A stretch of DNA of 26,941 bases from Nanohaloarchaea archaeon B1-Br10_U2g21 (GTDB lineage: Archaea; Nanohalarchaeota; Nanosalinia; Nanosalinales; Nanosalinaceae), in contig LKMP01000012.1 of the NCBI GenBank assembly GCA_001563915.1, forward strand, positions 1 through 26,941. The letters run 5' to 3'. The position numbers and the translations under genes are program-made. This document shows positions 47 through 16,477 of this stretch, in pieces. Below the pieces are notes generated by a model that was not told the origin of the DNA, did no database searches, and was given only the letters and a program-made list of their open reading frames with translations. The first letter of the stretch is position 1. Each line of letters begins with the position of its first letter.

Positions 47-592
47 ATGAGTCAACAAGAGATGACTGTTGAACTCTTCGGACGCCAGACTAACTTTGAA
101 TACTCAGAGACCTGGCTAGGTTATTCCATTCTAGGCCTCAGAGTTCTCGTGGCTTGGGTCTTCATTCAAGGAGGATTAGAAAAGATTCTTGGAGACTTTA
201 CATCAGTACACTTCCTTGAAGGAGTTGAGGAATCAAACCCGTTCTTTGAACTGTTCCAGTTCTTTGCAGCACATCCAGAACTAATTGATCCTCTAGTGAT
301 GTATGGCCAATTATTGATAGGTCTTGCACTGCTTTTAGGACTTGCTTTCAGATTTGCAGCCGCTATGGGAGGTCTTCAAATGACCTTATTCTGGTTAGCA
401 AGCTTTGAAGCAGGATTTATGGCAGGATTGCCAGTAGAACATGGATTTGTAGTAACTGAAACCCTTGTGTATGTAGTCTTATTATTTGGACTAGGCGCTT
501 GGGGCGCAGGCAGAATCCTAGGTCTGGATTCAAGACTGGAAGAAGAGGAGTTCGTGCAAAACAATTCCTGGCTGAAATACTTGCTGGGATAA
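47..592 (+). CDS. DoxX/DoxD-family membrane protein (haloarchaeal type)
   Basis: LRVLVAWVFIQGGLEK helix, GQLLIGLALLLGLAFRFAA, and C-terminal GAGRILGLD, all typical of DoxX; about 4 TM segments. Confidence 0.85.
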   Translation: MSQQEMTVELFGRQTNFEYSETWLGYSILGLRVLVAWVFIQGGLEKILGDFTSVHFLEGVEESNPFFELFQFFAAHPELIDPLVMYGQLLIGLALLLGLAFRFAAAMGGLQMTLFWLASFEAGFMAGLPVEHGFVVTETLVYVVLLFGLGAWGAGRILGLDSRLEEEEFVQNNSWLKYLLG

Positions 593-2590: not shown

Positions 2591-3538
2591 ATGGAAGTAG
2601 CATGGTTCGATCATCAAAAATGGGAGGACATAAGCGAATTCAAAACTTTTGAACAGCCCTTAAACACAGAAAACTACAAAGACATAGACGCAGACGTAAT
2701 CTCGATTTTTGCCTCTTCAAACGTATCTGCCGAGATATTAGAAGAAATCAGGCCCAAAATAGTTGTAACTAGATCCACAGGCTTTGACCATATTGATTTA
2801 GAAAAAGCAGAGGAACTAGAGATAGAAGTTTACAACGTACCCCACTACGGATCTAATACCGTTGCAGAACATGCATTTGCCTTATTACTCGCATTATCAA
2901 AAAAAATACCTCAGGCTGAAGACAAAACACATCATGAATTCGCTCATGACGGCTTAGAAGGCTTTGAACTCAAAAACAAAAAAATTGGTGTTATTGGAAC
3001 TGGAGAAATAGGTCAAAAAGCCATAAAAATGGCAAAAGGGTTTGAAATGGATGTTATAGCTTACGATCCCTATGAAAGAAAGGAGTTAGAAGAAGATCTA
3101 GGCTTTATGTATGTCACTTTAGATCATCTAGTTCAAAAAAGCGATATAATCTCCCTACATTGTCCTTTAACCGAGGATAACCATTATCTACTATCAGAAG
3201 ATGAGTTCTGTCAGATGAACGAAACAGTGATAATTAACACTGCTCGCGGAGGCCTAATTAAGTCAGAAGCCCTTTTAGAGGCATTAGAAAATGATTCAGT
3301 AAGTTATGCTGGTCTAGATGTACTAGAACTCGAAGATGAGATGAGAGCCATAGAGGACTTCTCCAAAGAGACAGAGTTCTGCTGTAAAGAGTTTCAGGCA
3401 AACTGTGAACTAATTGAAAGAGAAGATGTTATTGTCACACCTCATAGCGCCTTTAATACAAGAGAAGCTAAGCAGAGAATACTTGAAACTTCTTTAAAGA
3501 ATATAGAAAAGAGGCCGGAAGAGAATCGAGTAGTTTAG
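2591..3538 (+). CDS. D-isomer-specific 2-hydroxyacid dehydrogenase (D-lactate dehydrogenase-like)
   Basis: RSTGFDHID, NVPHYG, VAEHA, Rossmann GVIGTGEIG..YDPY, INTARG, catalytic TPHSAF. Confidence 0.9.
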   Translation: MEVAWFDHQKWEDISEFKTFEQPLNTENYKDIDADVISIFASSNVSAEILEEIRPKIVVTRSTGFDHIDLEKAEELEIEVYNVPHYGSNTVAEHAFALLLALSKKIPQAEDKTHHEFAHDGLEGFELKNKKIGVIGTGEIGQKAIKMAKGFEMDVIAYDPYERKELEEDLGFMYVTLDHLVQKSDIISLHCPLTEDNHYLLSEDEFCQMNETVIINTARGGLIKSEALLEALENDSVSYAGLDVLELEDEMRAIEDFSKETEFCCKEFQANCELIEREDVIVTPHSAFNTREAKQRILETSLKNIEKRPEENRVV

Positions 3539-4926
3539 GCGTCTTCTACTCTGACGGGTTCTCTGTCCTGCCTAGTTGCAACATATGCTAGCCCTATCAA
3601 TACCAGTAGCCCTAGTAATAATAGCGGCCAGAATTCTGATACTGCTTCTGTGAACTGGCCAGCTAAGTCATCTTCAGGCTCTATGGGATCCTCTGGCTCC
3701 GGTTCAGGTTCAGGCTCTGGTTCTGGCTCCGGTTCAGGTTCAACTGTAATATTCCCTGTCTCTTCATCGTCTTCAGTGAAGACTCCGTGTACAAACTCTC
3801 CAGTTTCTAAATTACTTGTATCAATTGCTTCAAAAGTGATGTTTTCCTCTGATCCAGATTCGATTGTGGTATTTTGATCTTCTATTATTTCTCCGTCAAC
3901 CTGAAATTCTATGGTTTGGTTGCCTTCTTCTTCACCCACGTTTGTGATTGTTGCAGATACATCGATTAAATCGCCCTGTGTTACTGTTACGTTTTCAGGA
4001 TTAAGGTTGCTTACTTCAAAGAAAACTTCTTCTTGCTCTAGATCATCTATAACGTGTACATCATTACCATTTTCGTCTATTTCGTTATCATTGTCATTGT
4101 TATTTTCTTCTTCTGGTTCTTCTTCAACATCTTCTGTTGCGTATAATGTGTATACTGAGAAACTTTCTGCCTCGCCTGTAACAAAGTCATCTCCAGTCTC
4201 AGTAGTTACATCAGTCCATTCTTCTGCTTCTTCATCAAAATAATACATTTCAACGGCATGCTCATCAAATTCTTCTACTTCATCCTCTTCGTAAAATATT
4301 GTGACTGTGCCGCTTGCGTCATTGTCTACAATTACCTCTACGCCTCTTACAAATTCTCCAGGACCTTCAACATCTATACCTAGGGTTTCAAGCTTTTCCA
4401 CATCATCTATTTGATTTATGCTCGGGAATACTTCCGCATCTGAAATAACTTCGACTTCAGTCATCTCAGTATTCAAGGTCTGAATGAAAGGATTTTCTAG
4501 GTCATTAAATTCATAGGTCCACATATCGATCTCATAATCTCCCGTCCACAAATCAGCGTCAGAATCTACACCTAACTGGTCTATGCTTGAATCAAAGCCG
4601 TCCACTTCGCAAATATAGGTAGTATAATGATCTTCCTCCTCTATAGGTGTACACTCTGCATTACCAAAAGGTTCAGAAATATCTTCATCCTCAGATACGT
4701 TTATCCATACTCCTTGTGATGACATATCTTCTTGTAGTTCGGAATCCTCTCCTAACAACTCCTGCATAGGATAGTCTTCTCCTAACATTCCTGAGGCCTC
4801 TTCTTCAATAGTTGGAGGCTCAGCTCCTGCGAGACTTATTCCTATACCTATTATCAATATTGAAACTATTGCTGCCTGTTTCTTTAAATCCAACCTAACC
4901 ACCATACCATTGATGTATGAAACCAT
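3535..4926 (-). CDS. Acidic membrane-anchored surface protein: acceptor-like domain, PGF-pre-PGF-like domain, CARDB/Ig domain, PE stalk, C-terminal TM
   Basis: Signal peptide ending SLAGA; YYFDEEAEEW...AESFSVY; CARDB-like VSNLNP..GDLIDVSATITNVGEEEG..FQVDG; E(PE)8; TM FWPLLLLGLLVLIGLAYVA followed by a charged tail. Confidence 0.8.
   Translation of the reverse strand: MVSYINGMVVRLDLKKQAAIVSILIIGIGISLAGAEPPTIEEEASGMLGEDYPMQELLGEDSELQEDMSSQGVWINVSEDEDISEPFGNAECTPIEEEDHYTTYICEVDGFDSSIDQLGVDSDADLWTGDYEIDMWTYEFNDLENPFIQTLNTEMTEVEVISDAEVFPSINQIDDVEKLETLGIDVEGPGEFVRGVEVIVDNDASGTVTIFYEEDEVEEFDEHAVEMYYFDEEAEEWTDVTTETGDDFVTGEAESFSVYTLYATEDVEEEPEEENNNDNDNEIDENGNDVHVIDDLEQEEVFFEVSNLNPENVTVTQGDLIDVSATITNVGEEEGNQTIEFQVDGEIIEDQNTTIESGSEENITFEAIDTSNLETGEFVHGVFTEDDEETGNITVEPEPEPEPEPEPEPEPEDPIEPEDDLAGQFTEAVSEFWPLLLLGLLVLIGLAYVATRQDREPVRVEDA
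3691..3741 (-). repeat. Coding hexamer repeat encoding E(PE)8
   Basis: Degenerate ggttca/ggctct/ggctcc units; the 21-mer tctggctccggttcaggttca occurs at 3692 and 3722. Confidence 0.9.
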
Positions 4927-5066
4927 TCTTTTATCTCTTGCGACTAAACACTGAATAAGGACATATACATAGGATTATGCTGAAATAAAGTGTAATAAAG
5001 AGCTAAAAATAATGTAAAAGTATAGATATGTTTTTCAATACAATTCTTAGAACCGGAAAAAATTCC

Positions 5067-6170
5067 TTACTCTCTACCCAACAAATCTAAGATATCTTCT
5101 CGCCTTAAGTAAGCAAAACCTGCTGTAGCCAGCAAAATAAATACATACCAGTAACTTGAAGCTGTAGCAGCAGCCTGACCGGTTAGACCCTGAGCATCTG
5201 CATCTTCTGGCACTTCAGGCTCTCCAAGATCAACTCCCTCTTCTTCATCAGTATCTTCTTGATCTTCGTCTTCAGGTTCAGGTTCTGGCTCAGGTTCTGG
5301 TTCAGGCTCAGGTTCTGGATCTTCTTCAGATTCATTGACTTCTGATTCATCTTCAACAGATTCTGAAGGATCACTAGGACCTACCGTCGACGGAGTATGT
5401 TCTTGAGCAAAGGCCGCGTAAACTGAGAAATGATCTACTTCCGCTTCAACATAGTCATCACCAGCCTCAGATGCAAGTCCCTCCCATTCGCCAGTTGAAT
5501 CATTGTAGTACCGGACTTCTAATGTATCAGTATCAAGACCTGAAACATCAAACTCATCGAAACCGATACGCACAGTACCCGAAGCTTCAACACCTTCATC
5601 AACGCCTACCTCTATACCGCCTACAAACTCATCAGAGTGGTCGACTCCTACAAAATCAAGCTCAGTAACATCAACACTAGAGTCTTCTGAGGCCTCAACA
5701 GTTACATCACTCTGACCTACAGGAACATTTGTCGGAACATTTGCTTCAGCATTTTCAGAAGCAGTTTCAGACCCAAGGCCTACGCGACTCAAAAGTCCTA
5801 ACTCAAAATCATAGGTTTCAGCTCTCAAGTTAGTAGCCGAATCAATATTAAGAGATGCTTCATACTCTCCCTGCTCAAATTCGCCTAAATCACAGATATA
5901 GGCCTCATCCATAAACCCGCATTTTTCTCCCTCTACTCCAACACTAAAAGCCTCTTCAGGCACTTCAAACTCATCATTTGAAACGTTCAATTCTAAGAAT
6001 ACCGGCACTTCTCTGTCAGGAGTGACCTCAAAATCAGCACCGAGTTCAAAACTTTCTCCGCCAGTAAATTCTTCAGAAAACTCTGAATCACCAGTAAATC
6101 CTACAGGCTGACCTAATGCAAGGCCTGAAAATCCTAAAATCACCGCTAAAACCAGTAATTGTTTCCTCAT
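5067..6170 (-). CDS. Acidic membrane-anchored surface protein, paralog of 3535-4926 without the CARDB domain
   Basis: Signal MRKQLLVLAVILGFSGLALG; YYNDSTGEW...VDHFSVY; (PE)8 and acidic stalk; TM YWYVFILLATAGFAYL followed by RR. ATGA overlap with the upstream gene. Confidence 0.8.
   Translation of the reverse strand: MRKQLLVLAVILGFSGLALGQPVGFTGDSEFSEEFTGGESFELGADFEVTPDREVPVFLELNVSNDEFEVPEEAFSVGVEGEKCGFMDEAYICDLGEFEQGEYEASLNIDSATNLRAETYDFELGLLSRVGLGSETASENAEANVPTNVPVGQSDVTVEASEDSSVDVTELDFVGVDHSDEFVGGIEVGVDEGVEASGTVRIGFDEFDVSGLDTDTLEVRYYNDSTGEWEGLASEAGDDYVEAEVDHFSVYAAFAQEHTPSTVGPSDPSESVEDESEVNESEEDPEPEPEPEPEPEPEPEDEDQEDTDEEEGVDLGEPEVPEDADAQGLTGQAAATASSYWYVFILLATAGFAYLRREDILDLLGRE
5271..5318 (-). 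repeat. Coding hexamer repeat encoding (PE)8
   Basis: Degenerate ttcagg/ttctgg/ctcagg hexamers. Confidence 0.9.
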
Positions 6171-6712
6171 GGCGCACTCACCTCAACTCTCGTATCTCCA
6201 TATCTTTGAAGAGTCAGATCTTCGCCTGAATCTGACTTAACTGTGTATTCAAAACGTTCCACAATTTTCCCACCAACATCAAGCTCGCAACCTTTAACAC
6301 TCTCTTGATTCTCTACACCATTACTTGTTTCTTCTTTCCCAACGTCCTCAACCACATCTTCACAACTATCAATTGCCTCTCCTTCACTATCAAAAGCCTT
6401 AAAATTGAATAAAACGTCCGCATTTTCGTCTTCGTCTTTATCAGTAGCTACATTCGCAAACATGCCTATTTCGGCATCATACCAATCTCCACTGTTATCG
6501 ACAACATACTCAAATGTAGTGCCGCCAGCCGTACTTCCTCCTTGTTCCTCTAGATAAAGCTCTTCTCCGGATCCTGCCCAAAACGTAGGACCTTCAACCT
6601 CCGTGACTCCGCTAATACTTCCGAAACTATCTAGAACTGTCGCGGAAACCATACCTACTAGTATGAAGAATCCAAGGATTCCAACCACTGCGATTTTCTC
6701 AAATACATTCAT
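6167..6712 (-). CDS. Secreted beta-rich acidic protein, putative minor or tip filament subunit
   Basis: Signal peptide ending VSA, then TVLDSFGSISGVTEV, which resembles the mature N-terminus of 6786-7889. One Cys pair and no C-terminal anchor. The function is inferred. Confidence 0.7.
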   Translation of the reverse strand: MNVFEKIAVVGILGFFILVGMVSATVLDSFGSISGVTEVEGPTFWAGSGEELYLEEQGGSTAGGTTFEYVVDNSGDWYDAEIGMFANVATDKDEDENADVLFNFKAFDSEGEAIDSCEDVVEDVGKEETSNGVENQESVKGCELDVGGKIVERFEYTVKSDSGEDLTLQRYGDTRVEVSAP

Positions 6713-6722
6713 ACGTGTATAA

Positions 6723-6776
6723 CAGACCTAACCGATCAGGTTAAAGGTCTGCTGTACCTTCCCCTATAAAATAGGG
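6723..6776 (-). terminator. Two tandem stem-loops between the putative major and minor subunit genes (partial terminator or mRNA stabiliser)
   Basis: cagacct-aacc-gatca-ggtt-aa-aggtctg (6723-6751) and ccctat-aaa-ataggg (6762-6776). Confidence 0.55.
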
Positions 6777-6785
6777 CTAAGAGGA

Positions 6786-7889
6786 TTATTCTTTAGGATG
6801 AACTCCTAAATCGAATCCATAATCCCCCGGATACGCTGCAAGCTTGAAGTCAATAACTGTGCCGAACTCTGAATCGCCAGAAGGAACAGTCACTTCTTCA
6901 TCTTCTGCAAAGTTGACAGGAGTCATCAGTGACTCTCCATCAAGTTTGAAATCAGTGTAGAATACTTCAAAAACTTGATCGTCTCCATCATTCTCCGTTC
7001 CTGTTGCTGTACCAGCATGGTAAATTTTAGCTCCTTCTACATCGTCACTATCATACTCATACCTTTCTGCATTACCATCTTCGTCATCCTCTCTAGCAAA
7101 TTCGTAGTCTTCTTTCTGTTTAGCAGAGTCATAGTTAGTGATCTTCAGAAGTGCAGCATCGTTCCCTTCAAATTTCTGACCTTCCCAAGTTACTGTGTCT
7201 TCACTGACAGTCGCATCTATGAGCATATAATGACCTTCATCCAGCTCACTATCTTCTTCTGTGACTTCAATGACTAGATATACCCAGTCAGGGTTTGTCT
7301 GACTGTGTTTGTTACCTTCTTTTCCTTTAACAGTCACTTCTGTTTCTCCTTCCTCAAGAGTTCCATCTACATCAAACCATACTCCTGCTGAGATTTCGCC
7401 ATCTTCTCCTTGCTCTTCTGCGTAAGCTCTAACTGCTGGCTGGTCGTCATGTAATGCATATTCTACTTCAGCAATACCCTCTCCTGGAGCTTCAGCGAAT
7501 GTAACGCCATTTTCTATGAGAAGATGTTCTGCCATGTACGCATCTCCAGAATCAACATATTCATCATCTGAATCACCTGGAGTATTACTTACTTGGCCAT
7601 CAAAGTATACTTCTTGTTCAGTCCCCAGATTGTTCTGGATTGTGTTGACATCTGTTACTGATTCTCCTGCTACAACTCCTGAAAAGCTCCAATCTTGCTC
7701 AAATGATTCTTCATTTGCATCTTCGCTATTAACAGTGATTGATTGATCCACATTTGCATCGCCAGTCACTGTACCAAAGCTTGAGAGTAGTGCTGCGCTT
7801 GCTCCTGCTGTTAGGAGTAGGCCTGTGATTAGGAGTACTGATACACTTCTTCCTAGGATTTCTACTTCGTGTGTTAGTTTGTCTTTCAT
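6786..7889 (-). CDS. Secreted beta-rich acidic protein, putative major filament subunit (TasA/CalY-like pattern)
   Basis: Signal peptide ending ASA; mature N-terminus ALLSSFGTVTGDANV; GVVAGES..TIQNNLG; C-terminal YPGDYGFDLGVHP; no TM anchor; perfect SD upstream. Confidence 0.75.
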   Translation of the reverse strand: MKDKLTHEVEILGRSVSVLLITGLLLTAGASAALLSSFGTVTGDANVDQSITVNSEDANEESFEQDWSFSGVVAGESVTDVNTIQNNLGTEQEVYFDGQVSNTPGDSDDEYVDSGDAYMAEHLLIENGVTFAEAPGEGIAEVEYALHDDQPAVRAYAEEQGEDGEISAGVWFDVDGTLEEGETEVTVKGKEGNKHSQTNPDWVYLVIEVTEEDSELDEGHYMLIDATVSEDTVTWEGQKFEGNDAALLKITNYDSAKQKEDYEFAREDDEDGNAERYEYDSDDVEGAKIYHAGTATGTENDGDDQVFEVFYTDFKLDGESLMTPVNFAEDEEVTVPSGDSEFGTVIDFKLAAYPGDYGFDLGVHPKE

Positions 7890-8057: not shown

Positions 8058-8169
8058 GTCTGGGTTGTTACTTTTTTCTGAACTTTTAGAGCTTATTTTT
8101 CCTTTTATTTGTTTTTCTATATTTTTGTGTATAGGTTCGTTTTTAAGATTTCTCGTTCCGGTGGTCGAT

Positions 8170-8631
8170 ATGGGCGATGGACTGGATTTTCCTGCGTTAG
8201 AAGAAGATAGAGAAGAGTTAGAGTCTTTGATAGATGAAAATGAGTATGGAGAGGTTGCAGAATGGTATGATGAGAATATTGGAGTAGAAGAAGAGATTTT
8301 AACGGATGATTTATCTGAAGAGTACCCTCTTTTTGAGGATGTGAAGCAAGTGCATGACTCCTATATCGAAGGCCTTGATACTGAGAGAGGACGCTGGTTG
8401 CATTGGTCTTGGATAAGTTCTTTTGGAGTTGCAGGAGGACTGACTGGCAGAGAGGCGTTTTACTCTGCTTTTGATAGCGGTGCAGAGTATGGTCCTGATG
8501 CAGTTGAACTAGCACAGGAAAATCTGTCCGGTACGCCGGAAGCCGGAGCCCTGGTGGGCAGCAGTTTGGCAAGCGCATATTTAGGGCACAAGCTGTATAA
8601 GCAGGCGCGAAAAGGGAGAAGAAACAATTGA
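8170..8631 (+). CDS. Hypothetical acidic protein with two Gly/Ala-rich hydrophobic segments and a basic tail
   Basis: ATG 8170 follows ggtggt. The extension to 8065 is T-rich sequence that looks intergenic. Confidence 0.6.
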   Translation: MGDGLDFPALEEDREELESLIDENEYGEVAEWYDENIGVEEEILTDDLSEEYPLFEDVKQVHDSYIEGLDTERGRWLHWSWISSFGVAGGLTGREAFYSAFDSGAEYGPDAVELAQENLSGTPEAGALVGSSLASAYLGHKLYKQARKGRRNN

Positions 8632-8692: not shown

Positions 8693-11600
8693 ATGAAGGT
8701 TGAAAATCTTGAACTGGATGAAAGACTGAAGCAGGACTACATTAATTCAGGCATAGTTGAGTTAAATCCTCCTCAGCAGCAGGCAGTAGAGAAAGGTCTT
8801 CTTGAAGGCGAGGACTTGATTGTGGCATCGCCGACCGCTTCTGGTAAGACTTTTATCGCAGAGCTAGGGCTCTCTAAGAAGACTGTCGAACAGGGAAAGA
8901 AGACAGTTTATATTGTTCCTTTGAAGGCTTTAGCATCGGAAAAGTACCATGATTTCTCTGAGCGTTATAGCGATTTGAACGTGAATATGAGTGTTGGTAA
9001 CAGCGATGATGCTGGAGAATACTTAGACAACTCAGACATTGTGATTGTGACCTCAGAAAAGATGGATTCGATGCTTCGGCATAATCCTAGCTGGATACAT
9101 GACATAGGTCTCGTAGTCGTTGATGAAATTCATTTACTGACTTCTGAGAACCGAGGACCTACTTTAGAAGTAACATTAACGCGTTTACGAGAACTCCTAG
9201 ACTTCCAATTGTTAGGCCTGTCAGCAACAATCAGTAATGCCGGCGAAATGGCGGAGTGGCTAGACTGCAAACTGGTAAAATCCGATTACAGGCCTGTCGA
9301 ACTGAAGCACGGAGTTTACTGGGGTAACGAGGTAGAGTTCTTCAGCGGAGATGAAGAAGTTGATTCGGAAACTGAAAGTCCTGATGGTTGGAGTACAGGA
9401 GCCGAATTAAAAGACGAGAACGACGTGGATTCTGAGACTCTTAAAGTGGATCACGGTGAGAGCCGAGGAACCTTAAATCTGTTAATAGACACATTAGAAC
9501 AGGACAAACAGGCCATCATCTTCTGCAACTCTAGAAAAGGCGCAGAAAAAGAATCAGACAGAGCAGGTAGAATAACAAAAGAATATCTCTCCAGAGAAGA
9601 GAAAAAAGACTTAGAAGCATATGCCGAAGATATAATTACGGAACTAGGCTCTCCAACATCCCAGTGTAAGCGTTTAGCAAAAAACATGGAGAAAGGCTCA
9701 GCATTTCACCACGCCGGAATTTTACCGGGCCAGAGAAAGGTTGTAGAGGAAGCTTTCAGGAAAGGCCTTATTCAATCTGTCTCTGCTACGCCCACACTTT
9801 GTTTATCAGGAGATACCGAAATCTGGACGGATGGCGAAAATAGAAAAGTTAAGGATCTTTCTCAATCGGATAACGTTCTGACATTACAATGTGATGATTC
9901 ATTGGAAGGTTTAAGACCTGAAAAAGTAGTTGAAAACTTGAATACTTCTAAATTAATCAGAATAGAGTCAGTCAGCGGAAGATCTATCAAAGTTACGCCA
10001 AACCACGATATACTCATAAAAAGAGATAATAAACGAAAAATTCTGCCTGCTAAAGACCTACAGAGCTCAGACAAAATAGCAACTGTTGGAAAAATCTCAC
10101 TATCTAAACATAACAAACCACGTATGAGCGACTTCGTTGAGCATAATGATTTACCAGTTATTGACCGCGTCTTAGATAAAGAGGATTTCTTCTTCATCGG
10201 AGCTATGCTAGGAGACGGTTATTCTGGAGCAGAATCTCGGAACAACTCCATTAAATACAAAGGGAGTGCCGACTTTGCTAACAGCAATAAATATATTTTG
10301 AATCGCGTAGAGAAATACTGCAAGTCTCTAGACCTGAATCCAAGATTACGGAAATCATCTACAACCGATCATGTAATAATATCAAAACATGAGTGGTTTA
10401 GAGAATTTCTACTTAATACTGGAGTTGAGAAAGGCGAGAACAAGTATATCTCTTCTGAATTACTGAGCGCAGATAAAGATAAGATTAGGGCCTTACTGCA
10501 AGGTTTGTTTGATACTGATGGTTGGATAAATTCGAGTAAATGTATAGGAATTTCAAGTATTTCAAAGCAGTTGATTAAAGATATTCAAAAACTCCTTCTG
10601 CGGTTCGGAATAGTTTCTAGAGTTAGAGAACGGAAAGGCCGTAAAACTAACTTTGATGACCGAGATAACTTTGAAACTAAGAAATGTTATGAACTAACCA
10701 TAAAGCAGAGTAAATGCATAAGACGGTTCTCAAGAAAAGTGGGATTTACAATAGAGCATAAGAATAACTCATTGAGAAATCTGGTTGCCGAAAATACTAC
10801 CATTCATTACAAGGAATGCTGTGAATGCAACTATAGAATCTATAGCACATTATTCTCTGGAAGAACCACGGATCAGAGAAAATGGGCTCAACAGAAGAGA
10901 GACATCATTAATTTTCTGGGAGAAAACGGCGAAACAGGATCTAATAAACTCAAAGATGATTTAGGATTCCCGCCGAGAAAAAACGAAACTCGTCTTAACC
11001 ACCATTATCAGCTTATTAGCAAAAGGAAAATAGGCGAAATAAGCCCTACAGAATGGTTCTGGAGTCTAAATGACATTGGAGAATGGATACATCAAAATAT
11101 TATCAAAAAACAAAGAGACCTTAATTACTTCCTATATAGAGGAAATTGTCCTATTTGCAAGAATAGTTTGGAAACTAAATATAGAGAAAAACACAGATCA
11201 AAAGACTTTGAACAAGACATTTTCTGGGATAAAATCAGAACAGTAACTCAAACAAAGAGAGAAGAAAAAGTATATGATGTGGTCCTCCCCCAAGAACCAG
11301 AAAACCAGCACTTATTCGCAGCAAATGGATTTCTAGTACATAACTCTGCAGGAATTAACATGCCCGCCTACCGAGTAATAAATCGCGATCTAAAACGTTA
11401 TACTGGTAGTGGCATGGATTTTATACCTGTATTAGAATATGAACAGATGTCGGGACGCGCTGGAAGGCCTAAATATGATGACTGTGGAGAGGCTATCTCG
11501 ATTGCGAAACAGCCCGGTATGAAGCAAGATATACTTGAGAGATATATTCTTGGCGATGCTGAGCGTATTCAATCTAAGCTTAACGTTGAGCCTGTGCTGC

Positions 11601-12481
11601 GTATGCATACATTGGCTTTAATTGCTTCAAAGTTCTGTGGCTCAATGGACGAATTGCAGAGTTTTTATGAGAAGACTTTTTACGCATATCAGTTCGGTAA
11701 TTTGTCAAGCGTTGAGGAAAAGATCGAGAAAGTTGTCAAGACGCTAGAAGAGTATGGTTTTGTTGATGTTGAGAGTTTTGAGGCCTCTAAAATAGGTAGA
11801 AAAGTGAGCGATTTGTATATTGACCCTGATTCTGCTTATCATATGATTCAGTGTTTGGAACGTGCTGAGGGTAGCGAGACTCGAGATATTTCATACTTGT
11901 TTATGTTGTCAAGAACTTCCGAGATCCGTTCTTTGAACGTGAAGAATAAGGAGTTGTCTGACTACGATAAGATGTTAATGGACGCTGAACCGTATTTGTT
12001 GGAGTCTGTACCTGAGGAGTGGGATATTGAGTATGAGAAGTTTGTGAGTTGTATGAAAACTGCTATGATGATGAATGCTTGGGCTTCGGAGATGAATGAG
12101 GAACGGATCATGAATGAGTTCGGTACTGCTCCTGGAGGCATTAGAGCAAAGATGCAGAATGCTGACTGGCTTCTCTATTCTTGTAAGGAATTAGCACGTA
12201 TGAAAGATCTTGAAGTCGACAAAGATTTAGAGAGGTTAAGAATTCGTTTAAAGCATGGAATAAAGGAGGAATTGTTGACTTTGGTTAAATATGATCAGAT
12301 AGGCCGTGTCAGAGCCAGAAAATTGTATGATTCTGGAATTAGAAATCAACGCGACATAAAAGATGTTAATTTTGAGAAGTTGAAGAAGCTGATAGGAAAA
12401 TCTACTGCTGGAAAATTAAAGGAGCAAGTCGGTCAGGAGAATTATTTTGACCGCGAAAACATAATGGATTATTTTGATTAG
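8693..12481 (+). CDS. hel308: Ski2-like SF2 DNA helicase Hel308 (Hjm), intein-containing precursor; spliced product about 747 aa
   Basis: Q motif LNPPQ, SPTASGKT, VPLKALASEK, DEIH, LSAT, AFHHAG, motif V ATPTL|SAGIN split by the intein, QMSGRAGRP, HhH IGRVRARKLY, and PIP-like C-terminus RENIMDYF. Confidence 0.95.
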   Translation: MKVENLELDERLKQDYINSGIVELNPPQQQAVEKGLLEGEDLIVASPTASGKTFIAELGLSKKTVEQGKKTVYIVPLKALASEKYHDFSERYSDLNVNMSVGNSDDAGEYLDNSDIVIVTSEKMDSMLRHNPSWIHDIGLVVVDEIHLLTSENRGPTLEVTLTRLRELLDFQLLGLSATISNAGEMAEWLDCKLVKSDYRPVELKHGVYWGNEVEFFSGDEEVDSETESPDGWSTGAELKDENDVDSETLKVDHGESRGTLNLLIDTLEQDKQAIIFCNSRKGAEKESDRAGRITKEYLSREEKKDLEAYAEDIITELGSPTSQCKRLAKNMEKGSAFHHAGILPGQRKVVEEAFRKGLIQSVSATPTLCLSGDTEIWTDGENRKVKDLSQSDNVLTLQCDDSLEGLRPEKVVENLNTSKLIRIESVSGRSIKVTPNHDILIKRDNKRKILPAKDLQSSDKIATVGKISLSKHNKPRMSDFVEHNDLPVIDRVLDKEDFFFIGAMLGDGYSGAESRNNSIKYKGSADFANSNKYILNRVEKYCKSLDLNPRLRKSSTTDHVIISKHEWFREFLLNTGVEKGENKYISSELLSADKDKIRALLQGLFDTDGWINSSKCIGISSISKQLIKDIQKLLLRFGIVSRVRERKGRKTNFDDRDNFETKKCYELTIKQSKCIRRFSRKVGFTIEHKNNSLRNLVAENTTIHYKECCECNYRIYSTLFSGRTTDQRKWAQQKRDIINFLGENGETGSNKLKDDLGFPPRKNETRLNHHYQLISKRKIGEISPTEWFWSLNDIGEWIHQNIIKKQRDLNYFLYRGNCPICKNSLETKYREKHRSKDFEQDIFWDKIRTVTQTKREEKVYDVVLPQEPENQHLFAANGFLVHNSAGINMPAYRVINRDLKRYTGSGMDFIPVLEYEQMSGRAGRPKYDDCGEAISIAKQPGMKQDILERYILGDAERIQSKLNVEPVLRMHTLALIASKFCGSMDELQSFYEKTFYAYQFGNLSSVEEKIEKVVKTLEEYGFVDVESFEASKIGRKVSDLYIDPDSAYHMIQCLERAEGSETRDISYLFMLSRTSEIRSLNVKNKELSDYDKMLMDAEPYLLESVPEEWDIEYEKFVSCMKTAMMMNAWASEMNEERIMNEFGTAPGGIRAKMQNADWLLYSCKELARMKDLEVDKDLERLRIRLKHGIKEELLTLVKYDQIGRVRARKLYDSGIRNQRDIKDVNFEKLKKLIGKSTAGKLKEQVGQENYFDRENIMDYFD
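9800..11344 (+). mobile_element. Intein (515 aa) with LAGLIDADG homing endonuclease in Hel308 motif V
   Basis: Block A CLSGDTEI, block B VTPNH, LAGLIDADG helices IGAMLGDG and LQGLFDTDG, block F VYDV, block G ANGFLVHN followed by Ser+1. Removing it restores ATPTLSAGINMPA. Confidence 0.95.
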
Positions 12482-14261: not shown

Positions 14262-15350
14262 TTATCGACCATTCTGATAAATTACTTTAACTTCGTCTTC
14301 AGATAGAGCCCTGTCATAAAGGACGGGGCTACTTATCGTTCCCTCAAAATTTGCAGTAGCTCCTTCAGACGTATGGAACGAACCAACTGCTTCAACTCGT
14401 AATCGCGGCACACTAATACCAAGTTCTTCGCTCTCTCGTTTTTCACCATTAACATAAAGTGTACTTACATCCCCATCATAAGATCCCATGATATGATGCC
14501 AATCGCCATCATTTACTAAGACTTCAGAAGTAGTTACATGATTCCATGTATCTCCATCATGAAATGTAGTCTGTGCTCCATCATCCCTAGTTCTTAAATA
14601 AAAAGATCTTCTACTTGATCCGCTTGCAATTATGTGCTGTGTTTTTTCACTATTCGTCTTCACCCATGCCCCAATAGTTATCTGTCCTGACCAGCCATCA
14701 CCAGTAGAATAATAATTTTCTTGGATTCCCACCCACTCATCATCTCCATTAAAACTCAGTCCATCACCAAGATTACTCTCATCAAACTCTGGTTCCCCTA
14801 CTATCTGACCATGATTTTGATTACCTGACAAATCAAAAATTTTATCGTCCCCTACATAGTCAGGATCTAAATACCAATATCCTAGCAAATCATCTAACAA
14901 TATTTCTTTACCCTCAAAATTATTTGAAATATCTAAGCGTCCTTGAACCTGTCCTTCAGACGTTAAACCCTTTAAATTTCCTGAATCATAACGAATTTCT
15001 ACGTCTAGCTGTTCGTTCTCATCAGATGGCCTGGTCCCAGGCAACGAAACAACATTATGCTCATTTAAATTTTGATTCATAGTATAAGTAACATTTTCGA
15101 CTTCTGAACTGCTTAAAGTAATATTGTTTATTTTTGTTTGTCCAATAGAGTCTTGCACTACAAACTGCAGGCCTTTGCCCTCAGCCACACTAAAATCTTG
15201 GACATTAAAATGACTAGATTCAAAACCTGTAACTGATTCTATATTTTGACCAGAGACTATAGAGAATATTGCTTCTCCAGCGATTGCTACAACAAGAAGC
15301 ATCCAACCATAAGTCATGAGGTATTCGATGGCAGACTGTGCCTTCATCAT
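14262..15350 (-). CDS. Class III signal peptide (type IV pilin-like) protein with C-terminal LamG/ConA-like domain
   Basis: MMKA|QSAIEYLMTYGWMLLVVA with E+5; LamG marks GYWYLD, DLSGNQNHG, FNGDDEWV, WHHIMGSYDG, LYVNG, YDRALSEDEV. Confidence 0.88.
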   Translation of the reverse strand: MMKAQSAIEYLMTYGWMLLVVAIAGEAIFSIVSGQNIESVTGFESSHFNVQDFSVAEGKGLQFVVQDSIGQTKINNITLSSSEVENVTYTMNQNLNEHNVVSLPGTRPSDENEQLDVEIRYDSGNLKGLTSEGQVQGRLDISNNFEGKEILLDDLLGYWYLDPDYVGDDKIFDLSGNQNHGQIVGEPEFDESNLGDGLSFNGDDEWVGIQENYYSTGDGWSGQITIGAWVKTNSEKTQHIIASGSSRRSFYLRTRDDGAQTTFHDGDTWNHVTTSEVLVNDGDWHHIMGSYDGDVSTLYVNGEKRESEELGISVPRLRVEAVGSFHTSEGATANFEGTISSPVLYDRALSEDEVKVIYQNGR

Positions 15351-16477
15351 GTTACCCCCGTAGATTCATACAAAAAATTTATCTCATTTTCGGATAAAGC
15401 TCTGTCATATATGTAGACTTCCTCTATAATCCCGTCCCAGCCATAATAACTGTTCCCGCTACCAGAGTGTCCAAACCTCCGATAAGGCATTCTTTCACCA
15501 TAATCTTCTATACTTTCTTCTCCGATAAAACTACTATTTTCATATACTCTCAGTACTTCATCATCAATAGTCCATGCTAACTGAAAAGGATTGCCATTTG
15601 GCCAAGACATGTCATCATGAGCTGTTCTTACATCATCACCGCTCTCAAGCCTATATCGAAATCTTTCTCCCTCTGTTCCACTACTAGAGGAGAAATAAAT
15701 AGTTCCACTAGTAGATGGATCGCCAAAGGGAGATATAAACCGAGAACCTCCTTCAGGATTTTCTGTCTGTTCACCGCCATCCCACCTCATCCATGTAACC
15801 ACAGTATACTCAGAATCGGGTTTTATCGTGCTGATTTCAAATGAATTAGTTTCTTCAAACCCAGAAAAGCCTCTAGTATGGAATCGCAGCGACTTTTCAT
15901 TAATATGCCCTTCAACAAAATCATTTCCATTACTTAACTGACCGTGATTATCGTTCAACGTCAAGTCATGTACCTTATCTTCCTCAGTATAGGTCTTTGA
16001 AGTACTCCAGTATCCTTTTAATCCGTTTAAAATAAGGGTTCTCTCTTCAAAAGAATCATCAATTTCTAATTCTCCTGCTAATCGGCCCGAAGTGGTAATA
16101 TTTTCTAAATTACCTGAATCATAGTTTATATCTATTTGTAATTCTCTTCCATTATCTGAAGGGATTATGCCTGGTAAATTAACAATCTCTTCTCCATCAG
16201 GATCTTGATTAAGTAAATATGTGATATTTCCTGAGTCTAAATCGTTTACTTTTATTTCTGCGACAGATACTTGTCCTACAGGATCTCCTATAGAGAAGAT
16301 TAAACCATCTTCTTTTGAGACTCCAAAGTCCTGGATAGTAATATGGCCTGAGTCAAAACCTGTAACAGATTCTATGTGCTGATCGCCTATCATTGAGAAT
16401 ACAGCGCCACCTACCACCGCAACGACCAACAGCATCCAGCCATACGTCATCAAATACTCAATCGCAGACTGCGCCTT
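15347..16477 (-). CDS. Paralogous class III signal peptide LamG protein; true start unresolved
   Basis: In-frame KAQSAIEYL lies upstream of the called TTG at 16453 (K codon at 16477-16475), but no in-frame ATG/GTG/TTG precedes it. GYW..DLTLNDNHG..YDRALSENEI. Confidence 0.8.
   Translation of the reverse strand, partial: KAQSAIEYLMTYGWMLLVVAVVGGAVFSMIGDQHIESVTGFDSGHITIQDFGVSKEDGLIFSIGDPVGQVSVAEIKVNDLDSGNITYLLNQDPDGEEIVNLPGIIPSDNGRELQIDINYDSGNLENITTSGRLAGELEIDDSFEERTLILNGLKGYWSTSKTYTEEDKVHDLTLNDNHGQLSNGNDFVEGHINEKSLRFHTRGFSGFEETNSFEISTIKPDSEYTVVTWMRWDGGEQTENPEGGSRFISPFGDPSTSGTIYFSSSSGTEGERFRYRLESGDDVRTAHDDMSWPNGNPFQLAWTIDDEVLRVYENSSFIGEESIEDYGERMPYRRFGHSGSGNSYYGWDGIIEEVYIYDRALSENEINFLYESTGVT

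Follow-up and report, generated by a model that had tools for sequence, protein, structure and literature searches.

A candidate multi-subunit adhesin with donor-strand complementation and a putatively self-cleaving membrane anchor in Nanohaloarchaeota

Four adjacent genes in the genome of Nanohaloarchaea archaeon B1-Br10_U2g21, a small archaeon from a salt lake, had been interpreted in a preliminary description as the parts of an undescribed filament, in which a shaft, a tip, and two membrane bases are joined by donor-strand exchange. This raises the question of whether the locus encodes a pilus, or which other surface structure its products might form. In the window, i.e. the whole analyzed stretch of 26,941 nucleotides from contig LKMP01000012.1, the ORF listing confirmed all four ORFs where they had been placed, on the minus strand, to which all coordinates below refer: the large subunit (the former “shaft”, 367 amino acids, 6786..7889), the small subunit (the former “tip”, 181 amino acids, 6167..6712), base1 (367 amino acids, 5067..6170), and base2 (463 amino acids, 3535..4926). 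The start of base1 overlaps the end of the small gene by 4 nt, an arrangement found in the window and in six other loci. The large and small genes are separated by a 73-nt spacer (6713..6785) that folds into two hairpins (6705-6795: MFE -26.4 kcal/mol, z -2.74, with 1 of 200 shuffles equally stable) and may represent a partial terminator or processing site. The base1/base2 spacer is 140 nt long and AT-rich, which suggests that base2 is probably transcribed separately. A dedicated signal peptidase or chaperone gene was not found within the locus.

In the large subunit, a signal peptide precedes an N-terminal donor-type strand and a split beta-sandwich with a jelly-roll insert. Its signal peptide (residues 1-32, 7794..7889; alignments A1, A2, and A7) ends in GASA, with cleavage sites here and elsewhere read by eye according to the -3/-1 rule, and has an n-region whose conservation is unusual (K..[ILV].[ILV][FL]G[KR].[IV][PS], supported by a listing of 101 of the 108 family proteins). 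It is followed by a putative donor strand (residues 33-49, 7743..7793) with the motif ALLSSFGTVTGDANVDQ, in which A33, L35, and Q49 are invariant in 18 orthologues. In the AF2 monomer model (pLDDT 73.5, pTM 0.76), residues 1-46 are unpacked (pLDDT <50). A fold search resolved the protein into two domains, with sandwich matches spanning 49/53..367. The acceptor sandwich is composed of an N-terminal half holding block 1 (GES...VSN; residues 50-112, 7554..7742) and a C-terminal half holding block 2 (residues 321-367, 6789..6929), between which a variable, CBM/lectin-like jelly-roll is inserted (residues ~118-320, 6930..7538). Across the 104 representatives of the family, conservation resides in the motif and in the split sandwich, and the middles vary; relatives with a beta-helix as insert reach 445-500 amino acids. 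The mature protein comprises 335 amino acids, including the variable insert of 200 amino acids. The former “shaft” is a two-domain, lectin-like protein, and its conserved split sandwich with a variable lectin/CBM-like insert resembles the head of an adhesin more than it does a pilin.

The small subunit, which has three homologues besides itself, likewise starts with a signal peptide and a strand (residues 25-43, TVLDSFGSISGVTEVEGPT, 6584..6640), assigned as donor strand from the complex model described below, followed by a body without any match in Pfam or NCBIfam. Residues S23, A24, G31, S34, and G35 are invariant in the 11 sequences of alignment A3. The N-terminal motif previously noticed in both the large and the small protein was substantiated by BLASTP (E 2e-4) and, more clearly, by hhalign (97%, E 1e-10 over 40 columns), and a strict regular expression of the motif retrieved only these two proteins among the 2516 ORFs of at least 50 amino acids in the genome. 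As proposed, neither block was found in the small protein, which does carry the strand: comparisons of its body with either block or with the base N-domain gave E-values of 0.46-0.57.

In the three-chain complex model, residues 25-43 of the small protein enter the conserved sandwich of the large protein as an antiparallel strand. The ipSAE of the scored interface, which is the small-to-large one only, was 0.78, 0.78, and 0.80 compared to 0.00, 0.00, and 0.15 for the controls; the runs had at least 96% of contacts in common, with a partner pLDDT of at least 79. In the calibration set, which is unlike our three-chain job with its self-made, shallow alignments (11-20 rows), 58 of 80 solved complexes reach the ipSAE mark, as do 2 of 110 mismatched pairs. 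Residues 30-39 of the small protein pair with 355-363 of the large one and also pack against its residues 49-53 and 63-75; the large-small pairs 363-30, 361-33, 357-37, and 355-39 along the large strand 355-365 define the antiparallel register, with an expected error of 0.5-0.8 Å at the best pairs. On the large side, the interface comprises residues 49-53, 63-75, 78-82, 94, and 101-104, with contacts at 344-365. The model supports the expected insertion of the N-terminal strand of a donor-only small protein into a large sandwich that looks incomplete. When the large protein was replaced in the control, the small protein was not confidently placed on the base (0.15), suggesting that the base may not offer such a strand an open groove.

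The similarity of the bases to the large subunit is more remote. Two blocks had been reported to be shared by the large protein and base1, which pairwise BLASTP did not separate from chance (best E 0.94). Profile comparison, in contrast, aligned the large and base families (78%, E 1.9e-5, with signal peptides included in the alignment), and after removal of the signal peptides each of the two blocks was recovered on its own, with their order maintained (E 5.9e-4 over 36 columns and E 2.2e-4 over 26 columns), compared to E-values of 0.07-0.57 for eight control domain pairs. With large/base profile probabilities ranging from 29 to 78%, we consider this similarity weak but specific. The base1 N-domain (residues 22-130, 5781..6107; placed by hhalign), a putative docking site, shares the fold neighbors 8jmw_A, 7n6g_6M, and 5fqe_A with the large sandwich, in line with the structural similarity anticipated earlier. 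Opposite the strand region of the large subunit, the base has a gap in the profile alignment, which, together with the cleavage site read by eye, agrees with the earlier view that base1 lacks the strand. These comparisons point, weakly, to the base N-domain as a homologue of the acceptor sandwich without donor strand. The domain is confident in the monomer model (pLDDT 85-93) and may be complete on its own. The end block assigned to base2 aligns within the base family (alignment A4, 20 sequences), but the paralogy of base2 and base1 detected by BLASTP (E 4e-12, residues 167-255 versus 175-263) lies in a middle domain that had gone unmentioned.

Closer inspection of this middle domain indicated that the bases are not the plain anchors they had been taken for. 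Base1 (AF2 model, pLDDT 77.1) is arranged as a Sec-type signal peptide, the N-domain, a GAIN/ZU5-like domain of the MAIN (microbial GAIN-like autoproteolysis-inducing) type (residues 131-258, 5397..5780), a PE-rich linker, a GLTGQ motif, and a C-terminal transmembrane helix (residues 341-366, 5073..5150; helical in the model), with residues 265-339 being disordered and acidic. Base2 likewise contains an N-domain, the middle domain, a PE linker, and a TM anchor, as well as an extra domain. The sequence H247-F248-S249 (5424..5432) of base1, in the turn that links strand 240-245 to the final strand 250-255, is a putative autoproteolysis site. HFS is present in 18 of the 20 family members; base2 has SFS, and a base from the same genus (G026) has KYP at this position. 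With thresholds relaxed to E 10, none of the 20 base proteins matched Pfam GAIN, GPS, or ZU5, and the C-terminal GLTGQF+TM part also occurs in unrelated large proteins. According to the cited portions of a preprint, cleavage of HFS in bacterial MAIN domains falls between F and S, and the layout of MAIN proteins is signal peptide, ectodomain, MAIN, and anchor (bioRxiv 10.64898/2026.05.12.724683). From fold, motif, and this preprint, we infer probable self-cleavage of the base between F248 and S249 and a possible release by force.

The co-occurrence of these genes elsewhere was confirmed: the order large, small, and anchored base is found in 14 of 70 Nanohaloarchaeota genomes and in one Candidatus Aenigmarchaeota contig. 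In all 14 genomes with the N-module, a base match covering the N-domain adjoins on the same contig (coordinate comparison). Among nine fetched loci, all have a large homologue, BLASTP identified a base1 homologue in eight, and in seven a motif-bearing small ORF lies between large and base. The large protein is present in one copy per genome. The N-module occurs in 6 of 28 high-quality and in 3 of 8 single-contig genomes; in five closed genomes, the helicase/DHFR intergenic site holds other secreted cassettes or nothing, and three closed genomes have an empty syntenic site.

On balance, we lean towards the interpretation that the cluster encodes a multi-subunit adhesin combining donor-strand complementation with a self-cleaving membrane anchor. 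The donor-strand linkage of its proteins is partly supported, and the formation of a true filament is unproven. In the proposed assembly, Sec would export all proteins, and the single housekeeping signal peptidase I would process them. The small N-terminus (25-43) would then complete the split sandwich of the large protein, as modeled, and the large strand (33-49) would, judging from homology, complete the N-domain of base1 and perhaps that of base2, giving a chain in which the small subunit docks on the large one and the large one on the base. The ligands of the variable jelly-roll of the large protein are probably glycans, either on a host or on another surface. After cleavage at F248/S249, the ectodomain and its docked parts would be held solely by the last beta-strand, which continues via the acidic stalk into the TM helix, so that the ectodomain could be pulled off under force. 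The module, with its probably force-releasable anchor, could be how tiny DPANN symbionts grip and release their hosts.

We regard it as fairly unlikely that no strands are exchanged and that the N-terminal segment is instead specialized for export, processing, or retention in the membrane, as an uncleaved signal anchor or the recognition site of a modifying enzyme would be, with the proteins being independent members of a hypervariable surface-protein island. The motif directly following the predicted signal-peptidase site, the conserved n-region of the large protein, the changing content of the helicase/DHFR site, and the GLTGQF+TM part common to unrelated proteins would all fit this alternative, and predictors can juxtapose chains without real binding. 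However, the complex scores far above its three controls and in a specific antiparallel geometry, the acceptor sandwich is conserved beyond the signal despite variable middles, the three genes are nearly always adjacent, and a homologous base domain exists without the strand region. Highly improbable, in our view, is that the module forms the S-layer of the archaeon as an SlaA/SlaB-like canopy on a membrane stalk: a putative S-layer is described for nanohaloarchaeal cells in the cited part of a cryo-ET study (bioRxiv 10.1101/2023.02.24.529834), and a secreted large protein indeed adjoins a C-terminally anchored one with a long acidic stalk, but the patchy distribution, the empty syntenic sites, and a head domain that differs between genomes, which is commoner in adhesins, argue against it.

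A true donor-strand pilus, in which the large protein polymerizes head-to-tail, the small one caps, and the base nucleates or terminates and anchors the fiber, is unlikely as well. The large protein does combine a donor-type strand with an acceptor sandwich, the donor-only small protein sits in its modeled groove like a cap, the two hairpins 3' of the large gene could raise its stoichiometry, and tafi (the Tat-fimbriae of haloarchaea) and the Pam pili of CPR bacteria, as far as described in the cited portions, are anchor-terminated strand-donation fibers in membrane-only envelopes (PMC11821415, PMC12337348, PMC13278184). Nevertheless, donors and acceptors already balance 1:1:1 without polymerization, the single gene copy and the lack of a dedicated peptidase or chaperone at the locus speak against a pilus, and a mature subunit of this size with a large variable insert and beta-helix relatives differs from known major pilins, which are small and uniform.

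In TasA/TapA of Bacillus subtilis, AbpA bundling pili, threads, and cannulae, an N-terminal strand completes the beta-sandwich of the next subunit, and an accessory protein gives or takes the first strand; all these fibers are homopolymers of small subunits. The cluster shares with these systems a Sec signal peptide that is immediately followed by an N-terminal strand. TasA, archaeal bundling pili, cannulae, and threads, suggested earlier for comparison, were not among the top 50 fold matches, which contained none of the known donor-strand pilins, nor did these match in sequence. Unlike tapA-sipW-tasA, the locus is without a SipW-type peptidase; Peptidase_M73 (PF12389) and the SipW-cognate signal (TIGR04088) had no match in searches of the genome whose controls worked. 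Pam pili are described, in the cited portion of PMC13278184, as donor-strand fibers of an ultra-small episymbiont with all parts exported by Sec, abundant small pilins resolved by cryo-EM, PapD-like membrane-anchored chaperones, C-terminal TM helices holding assembly factors, and a terminator anchoring the fiber to the cytoplasmic membrane. We liken the two by description; Pam is bacterial, whereas the archaeal cluster is without an identified chaperone homologue.

Regarding the anchor, the base differs from adhesion GPCR GAIN and ZU5/FIIND proteins in having no 7TM or death-fold signaling module; since its C-terminal fragment comprises no more than a stalk and a single TM helix, its output is likely release and not signaling. 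With MAIN proteins such as B. subtilis YfkN, it has in common a GAIN-like beta-sandwich adjoining a cell-surface anchor, the HX(S/T) motif (here HFS) in the turn preceding the last strand, the order of signal peptide, ectodomain, MAIN, and anchor, and the association with lectin-like adhesion domains. Typical MAIN proteins, as characterized in the cited portions of the preprint, combine adhesion and enzyme domains in cis on one large polypeptide (mean 158 kDa) and use sortase, cell-wall-binding, or SLH domains as anchors (bioRxiv 10.64898/2026.05.12.724683). Base1, in contrast, has only 367 amino acids with one small N-domain, a TM-helix anchor, and putative autoproteolysis, and the lectin, beta-helix, or LTD cargo resides on separate genes and appears to dock by strand donation.

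Also similar in organization is tafi, for which the cited portions of the literature describe a TafC tip, a TafE adapter or major pilin, TafA, and TafF/TafF1/TafF2 anchors (PMC11821415) as well as cryo-EM in Natrinema (PMC12337348). DPANN go unmentioned in these portions of the two papers. The concept as such is not undescribed: haloarchaeal tafi, according to the same sources, already join a tip, an adapter, a major pilin, and one or more membrane anchors via strand donation (PMC11821415, PMC12337348). No sequence relationship was found, PF06510 having no match, as was also the case for its control; the locus is without the TafD signal peptidase or TafG, its signals are of the Sec type instead of Tat, its anchor bears a GAIN-like HFS domain, and no homopolymeric major pilin is evident. 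The likeness lies in N-terminal donor strands joining subunits, in a two-domain tip with a lectin-type head (laminin-G in tafi), in a Sec-exported anchor that spans the membrane and has a pilin-like domain to take the strand, in two anchor paralogues per locus, as in Natrinema, and in an archaeal envelope without outer membrane. Overall, our analysis suggests that the concept combines tafi-like strand donation with a MAIN anchor, both of which are of known kinds.

All four open reading frames named in the preliminary description are present on the minus strand. They encode the large protein, which had been proposed as the shaft of a filament (6786-7889, 367 aa), the small protein, proposed as its tip (6167-6712, 181 aa), and two membrane-anchored bases, base1 (5067-6170, 367 aa) and base2 (3535-4926, 463 aa). 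The window is contig C15 of a genome of 816 kb (24 contigs, 92% complete) with strongly acidic proteins, and the named relatives of the cluster proteins belong to Candidatus Nanohaloarchaea and Candidatus Haloredivivus. None of the four proteins reached the cut-off of a Pfam or NCBIfam family, all matches being sub-threshold or of low complexity. BLASTP against the 2516 ORFs of the genome found no paralogues beyond the four proteins.

The end of the small gene overlaps the start of base1 by 4 nt, and a spacer of 140 nt, rich in AT, lies upstream of base2. The 73-nt spacer adjoining the 3' end of the large gene (6713-6785, minus strand) separates it from the small gene and contains two hairpins (-26.4 kcal/mol, z -2.74, equally stable in 1 of 200 shuffles), which may represent a processing site or a partial terminator. 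On the plus strand, divergent from the cluster, lies a 188-aa ORF with hydrophobic segments (8065-8631). Neither Pfam nor NCBIfam gave a match for it, other loci show no evident counterpart in this position, and it may not be a gene. It is followed by a Hel308-type helicase gene (8693-12481, plus strand), whose product owes its length of 1262 aa to an intein harbouring a LAGLIDADG endonuclease (Intein_splicing, E 2e-16; LAGLIDADG_3, E 2e-21). Its orthologues comprise 753-784 aa in most related loci, with two further long forms in the genomes G039 (1296 aa) and G050 (a frame of 1225 aa).

The N-terminal motif reported for the large and small proteins proved to be real (BLASTP, E 2e-4; profile comparison, 97%, E 1e-10), and these are the only two of the 2516 ORFs in which it was found. 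This N-module consists of a conserved n-region, a hydrophobic core that runs to G[AG]SA, and the donor-type strand ALL.S[FY]GT[VI]SGTA.V.Q; a permissive regular expression recovered it in 101 of the 108 listed family proteins. Within the signal peptide of the large family (residues 1-32 of the large protein, 7794-7889), the cytoplasmic n-region, of the form K..[ILV].[ILV][FL]G[KR].[IV][PS], is conserved across acidic and non-acidic members, a degree of conservation not usual in Sec signals that are cleaved. The small proteins lack this large-type n-region.

The two sequence blocks that the large protein had been said to share with base1 scored no better than chance when compared by pairwise BLASTP (E 0.94) but emerged from profile comparisons. 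The full profiles matched at 78% (E 1.9e-5), partly via the signal peptides; once these were removed and the blocks tested singly, E values of 5.9e-4 and 2.2e-4 were obtained with the order kept, compared to 0.07-0.57 for eight control domain pairs. We read this similarity as a weak but specific homology at the profile level. In the full-profile alignment, the strand region of the large protein falls into a gap in the base, in line with the earlier observation that base1 lacks the strand. The small protein has the strand and neither block, as had been described (profile-profile comparison of its body with the blocks and the base N-domain, E 0.46-0.57). For base2, an end block in common with the other proteins had been claimed; its N-domain does align in the family alignment, and its paralogy to base1 is evident from a BLASTP match over the middle domain (E 4e-12), which had been missed.

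The co-occurrence of the cluster genes in other genomes was confirmed. Among nine fetched loci of other Nanohaloarchaeota, a homologue of the large protein was present in all nine, a base1 homologue (BLASTP) in eight, and a motif-bearing small ORF between the two in seven, the small and base genes overlapping by 4 nt in five loci and by 1 nt in two. The gene order is recurrent. It extends to a second phylum, as one Candidatus Aenigmarchaeota contig carries a non-acidic family member in the same arrangement: a beta-helix version of the large protein, a second protein of 787 aa carrying GATLDSYGTVSG, and a base-like protein whose gene overlaps the second one by 4 nt and which has HLS where others have HFS. 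The N-module profile matched 14 of the 70 genomes of the phylum, among them 6 of 28 of high quality and, by our own count of single-contig rows, 3 of 8 in a single contig. Coordinate comparison showed that each of the 14 has, next to its N-module and on the same contig, a base match that spans the N-domain, which bears out the expected conserved synteny.

The module is located between the Hel308-type helicase gene and the DHFR/thymidylate-synthase genes. Of five closed genomes, three have nothing at this site, and in two it is occupied by secreted cassettes of other kinds with different large proteins (L040-L044: G046, G065, G053, G031, G050); in G065, it contains a 473-aa GLTGQF-anchored protein with SFS and no N-motif partners. 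The site is therefore a hypervariable surface-protein island and not a universal S-layer locus; the S-layer reading of the module was rejected on account of its patchy distribution. Searched for exhaustively, the family of the large protein yielded 104 representatives (E <= 1e-3), about 17 of which are full-length orthologues. Most members match only the first ~100 and the last ~30 residues and differ in their middles, some having Beta_helix/NosD middles. The small proteins of other genomes likewise combine the same strand with different bodies, a lamin-tail domain (LTD) being found in the three of three tested.

The structural model of the large protein (pLDDT 73.5, pTM 0.76) leaves residues 1-46 unpacked. 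By comparison with the family, the conserved parts are the strand and a split beta-sandwich, and the variable jelly-roll inserted into the latter is a probable glycan-binding head. The protein proposed as the shaft is more fittingly regarded as the head subunit of an adhesin. A giant protein of 4417 aa (P0028) contains nine stretches matching jelly-roll residues 128-208 (E 7e-13), so that the head domain is also found repeated in surface proteins of giant size. For base1 (pLDDT 77.1; ectodomain 85-97), also encoded on the minus strand, the family alignment gives a signal peptide at residues 1-21, and the model and fold search place an N-domain sandwich at residues 22-130. A second domain with a GAIN-B-like beta-sandwich fold (131-258), a disordered acidic linker, and a transmembrane helix (341-366) are predicted to follow. 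The likeness of the N-domain to the sandwich of the large protein in sequence is accompanied by three common fold neighbours of the models (8jmw_A, 7n6g_6M, 5fqe_A).

The donor-strand linkage was addressed in one modelling job, which combined the ectodomain of base1 (22-262) with the mature forms of the large (33-367) and small (25-181) proteins and scored the small protein. Scores of 0.78, 0.78, and 0.80 were obtained, compared to 0.00, 0.00, and 0.15 for the controls, the last with the large protein swapped for an unrelated one; the runs had at least 96% of contacts in common, and the partner pLDDT was at least 79. In calibration, 58 of the 80 solved complexes attained the mark, as did 2 of the 110 mismatched pairs, counts that serve as a rough guide for a three-chain job built on alignments of our own. 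The predictor is unlikely to have reproduced a structure known to it, since no solved relative was found by sequence: in a PDB search (E <= 10), the profiles of the large (A2) and small (A3) proteins gave no match and that of the base family (A4) noise only. In the model, residues 25-43 of the small protein contact residues 49-53, 63-75, 78-82, 94, 101-104, and 344-365 of the large one (best pairs 30-363, 33-361, 37-357, and 39-355). The small strand is thereby predicted to be added antiparallel beside the C-terminal strand of the large protein, which corresponds to donor-strand complementation in this one model. Contacts with base1 were few (68-74, 112-116). Overall, the preliminary description was largely correct in what it observed, while its donor-strand idea gained support from the model at the small-large interface only.

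The bases are better seen as probably self-cleaving anchors of the MAIN type (microbial GAIN-like autoproteolytic domain) than as plain bases. Base1 follows the order typical of MAIN proteins, from signal peptide through ectodomain and MAIN-like domain to the surface anchor. Its HFS (247-249) agrees with the HX(S/T) catalytic motif expected in the beta-turn ahead of the last strand, as it is placed between strands 240-245 and 250-255, and this tripeptide is present in 18 of the 20 base-family members, the exceptions being base2 (SFS) and the G026 base (KYP). MAIN domains have been described in bacteria and archaea, where they adjoin a cell-surface anchor and are cut between F and S of HFS, the fragments remaining together; the authors, who count 15,000 MAIN proteins, propose a release of adhesins and enzymes under shear (bioRxiv 10.64898/2026.05.12.724683). 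No Pfam GAIN, GPS, or ZU5 match was found in the 20 members at E <= 10, which agrees with the low similarity to the eukaryotic domains noted in that preprint. By analogy, base1 would cleave itself at F248|S249 and provide a releasable anchor. Base2, which has SFS, one additional domain, and a promoter region to itself, may be a non-cleaving alternative.

The C-termini of base1 (5067-5200) and base2 (3535-3670) have in common GLTGQF, a transmembrane helix, and a short basic tail. This C-terminus resembles a tripartite sorting signal and was also matched alone in other proteins of the phylum (G064, G043, G047, G034, G065, G033, G041, G049), including ORFs of 4085, 895, and 804 aa. The claim that no sortase is at hand holds for archaeosortase: TIGR04178 and TIGR04125 had no match in the 92%-complete genome and matched the Haloferax volcanii controls. 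Exosortase PF09721 had no match either, its control missing the Haloferax enzyme too.

Little has been established about the way in which DPANN archaea recognise their hosts, hold on to them, and leave them; in Nanohaloarchaea, an adhesin role has so far only been suggested, for proteins with lectin/glucanase and pectin lyase domains (bioRxiv 10.1101/2023.02.24.529834). The module bears on this question as a testable adhesin architecture with interchangeable heads (jelly-roll, beta-helix, LTD), a conserved docking sandwich plus strand, and a probably self-cleaving anchor able to let go under force. The own strand of the large protein would dock on the homologous base N-domain, giving the order base <- large <- small, and the head would bind glycans, perhaps on a host. 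If so, strand-donation assembly would reach DPANN, and the hypervariable island would be explained by heads that can be swapped without touching the anchor. The filament itself is unproven. Beyond what was observed or modelled (gene order, shared strand, acceptor sandwich, small-large docking, GAIN-like fold with HFS), a combined reading would hold that at least two DPANN phyla build a lectin-decorated fibre without ATPase, chaperone, or sortase, in which large subunits are chained by donor-strand exchange, the small one caps, the MAIN root acts as a mechanical fuse, and base1 (HFS) gives releasable and base2 (SFS) permanent host attachment; we regard this combined reading as improbable.

In the literature searched, which for the MAIN preprint means its main text, neither a donor-strand nor a MAIN system is described for DPANN, and nothing relevant was found on the lamin tail domain or on pili, adhesins, or host attachment of Nanohaloarchaeota. 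None of the terms DPANN, Nanohalo-, halophil-, Haloferax, PGF-CTERM, and archaeosortase appears in that main text. Both the donor-strand and the MAIN part are each already known elsewhere. In the described MAIN proteins, cargo is fused in cis; here it would be attached in trans.

The non-type-IV nature of the proteins was borne out: the class III signal peptide and the hydrophobic mature N-terminal helix of type IV pilins are both absent, and the mature N-termini are of the amphipathic strand type after xSA. Elsewhere in the window, two adjacent overlapping ORFs (14262-15350 and 15347-16453, minus strand) have archaeal type-IV-pilin-like N-termini (QSAIEYLMTYGWMLLVV...) and Laminin_G_3 domains (E 5e-20 and 5e-10); they represent a second, unrelated lectin-type surface-protein set. 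Tat export of the cluster proteins was rejected, since the n-region, read by eye, shows a single R or K and no twin arginine. No dedicated signal peptidase is encoded near the cluster, the sole archaeal signal peptidase I match of the genome being a housekeeping one (C16:37778-38359). The genome is also devoid of archaeosortase, a TasA-type protein, and a SipW-type signal: PF12389 (Peptidase_M73; matched by the B. subtilis control) and TIGR04088 (SipW-cognate signal; matched by the B. subtilis and Haloferax volcanii controls) had no match in the genome. In the suggested fold comparison, the 50 best Foldseek/VIA-align matches of the large model included no structure of TasA, AbpA, CanA, a thread, or Taf, an absence compatible with a likeness to them.

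Chaperone-usher pili are characterised by a PapD-like chaperone and an outer-membrane usher; archaea have no outer membrane. The closest functional analogue is given by the Tat-fimbriae (tafi) of haloarchaea, in which a lectin-type tip is already linked to adapter, pilin, and membrane anchor(s) by strand donation confirmed by cryo-EM (PMC11821415, PMC12337348), so that the concept was not undescribed. PF06510 (TafA/TafE, DUF1102-like) matched neither this genome nor any of 14 control genomes. The present module differs from the tafi by Sec-type signals, by the lack of TafD/TafG and of a detectable sequence relationship, and by its MAIN-type anchor. A bacterial parallel in episymbionts is provided by the Pam pili of CPR (PMC13278184).
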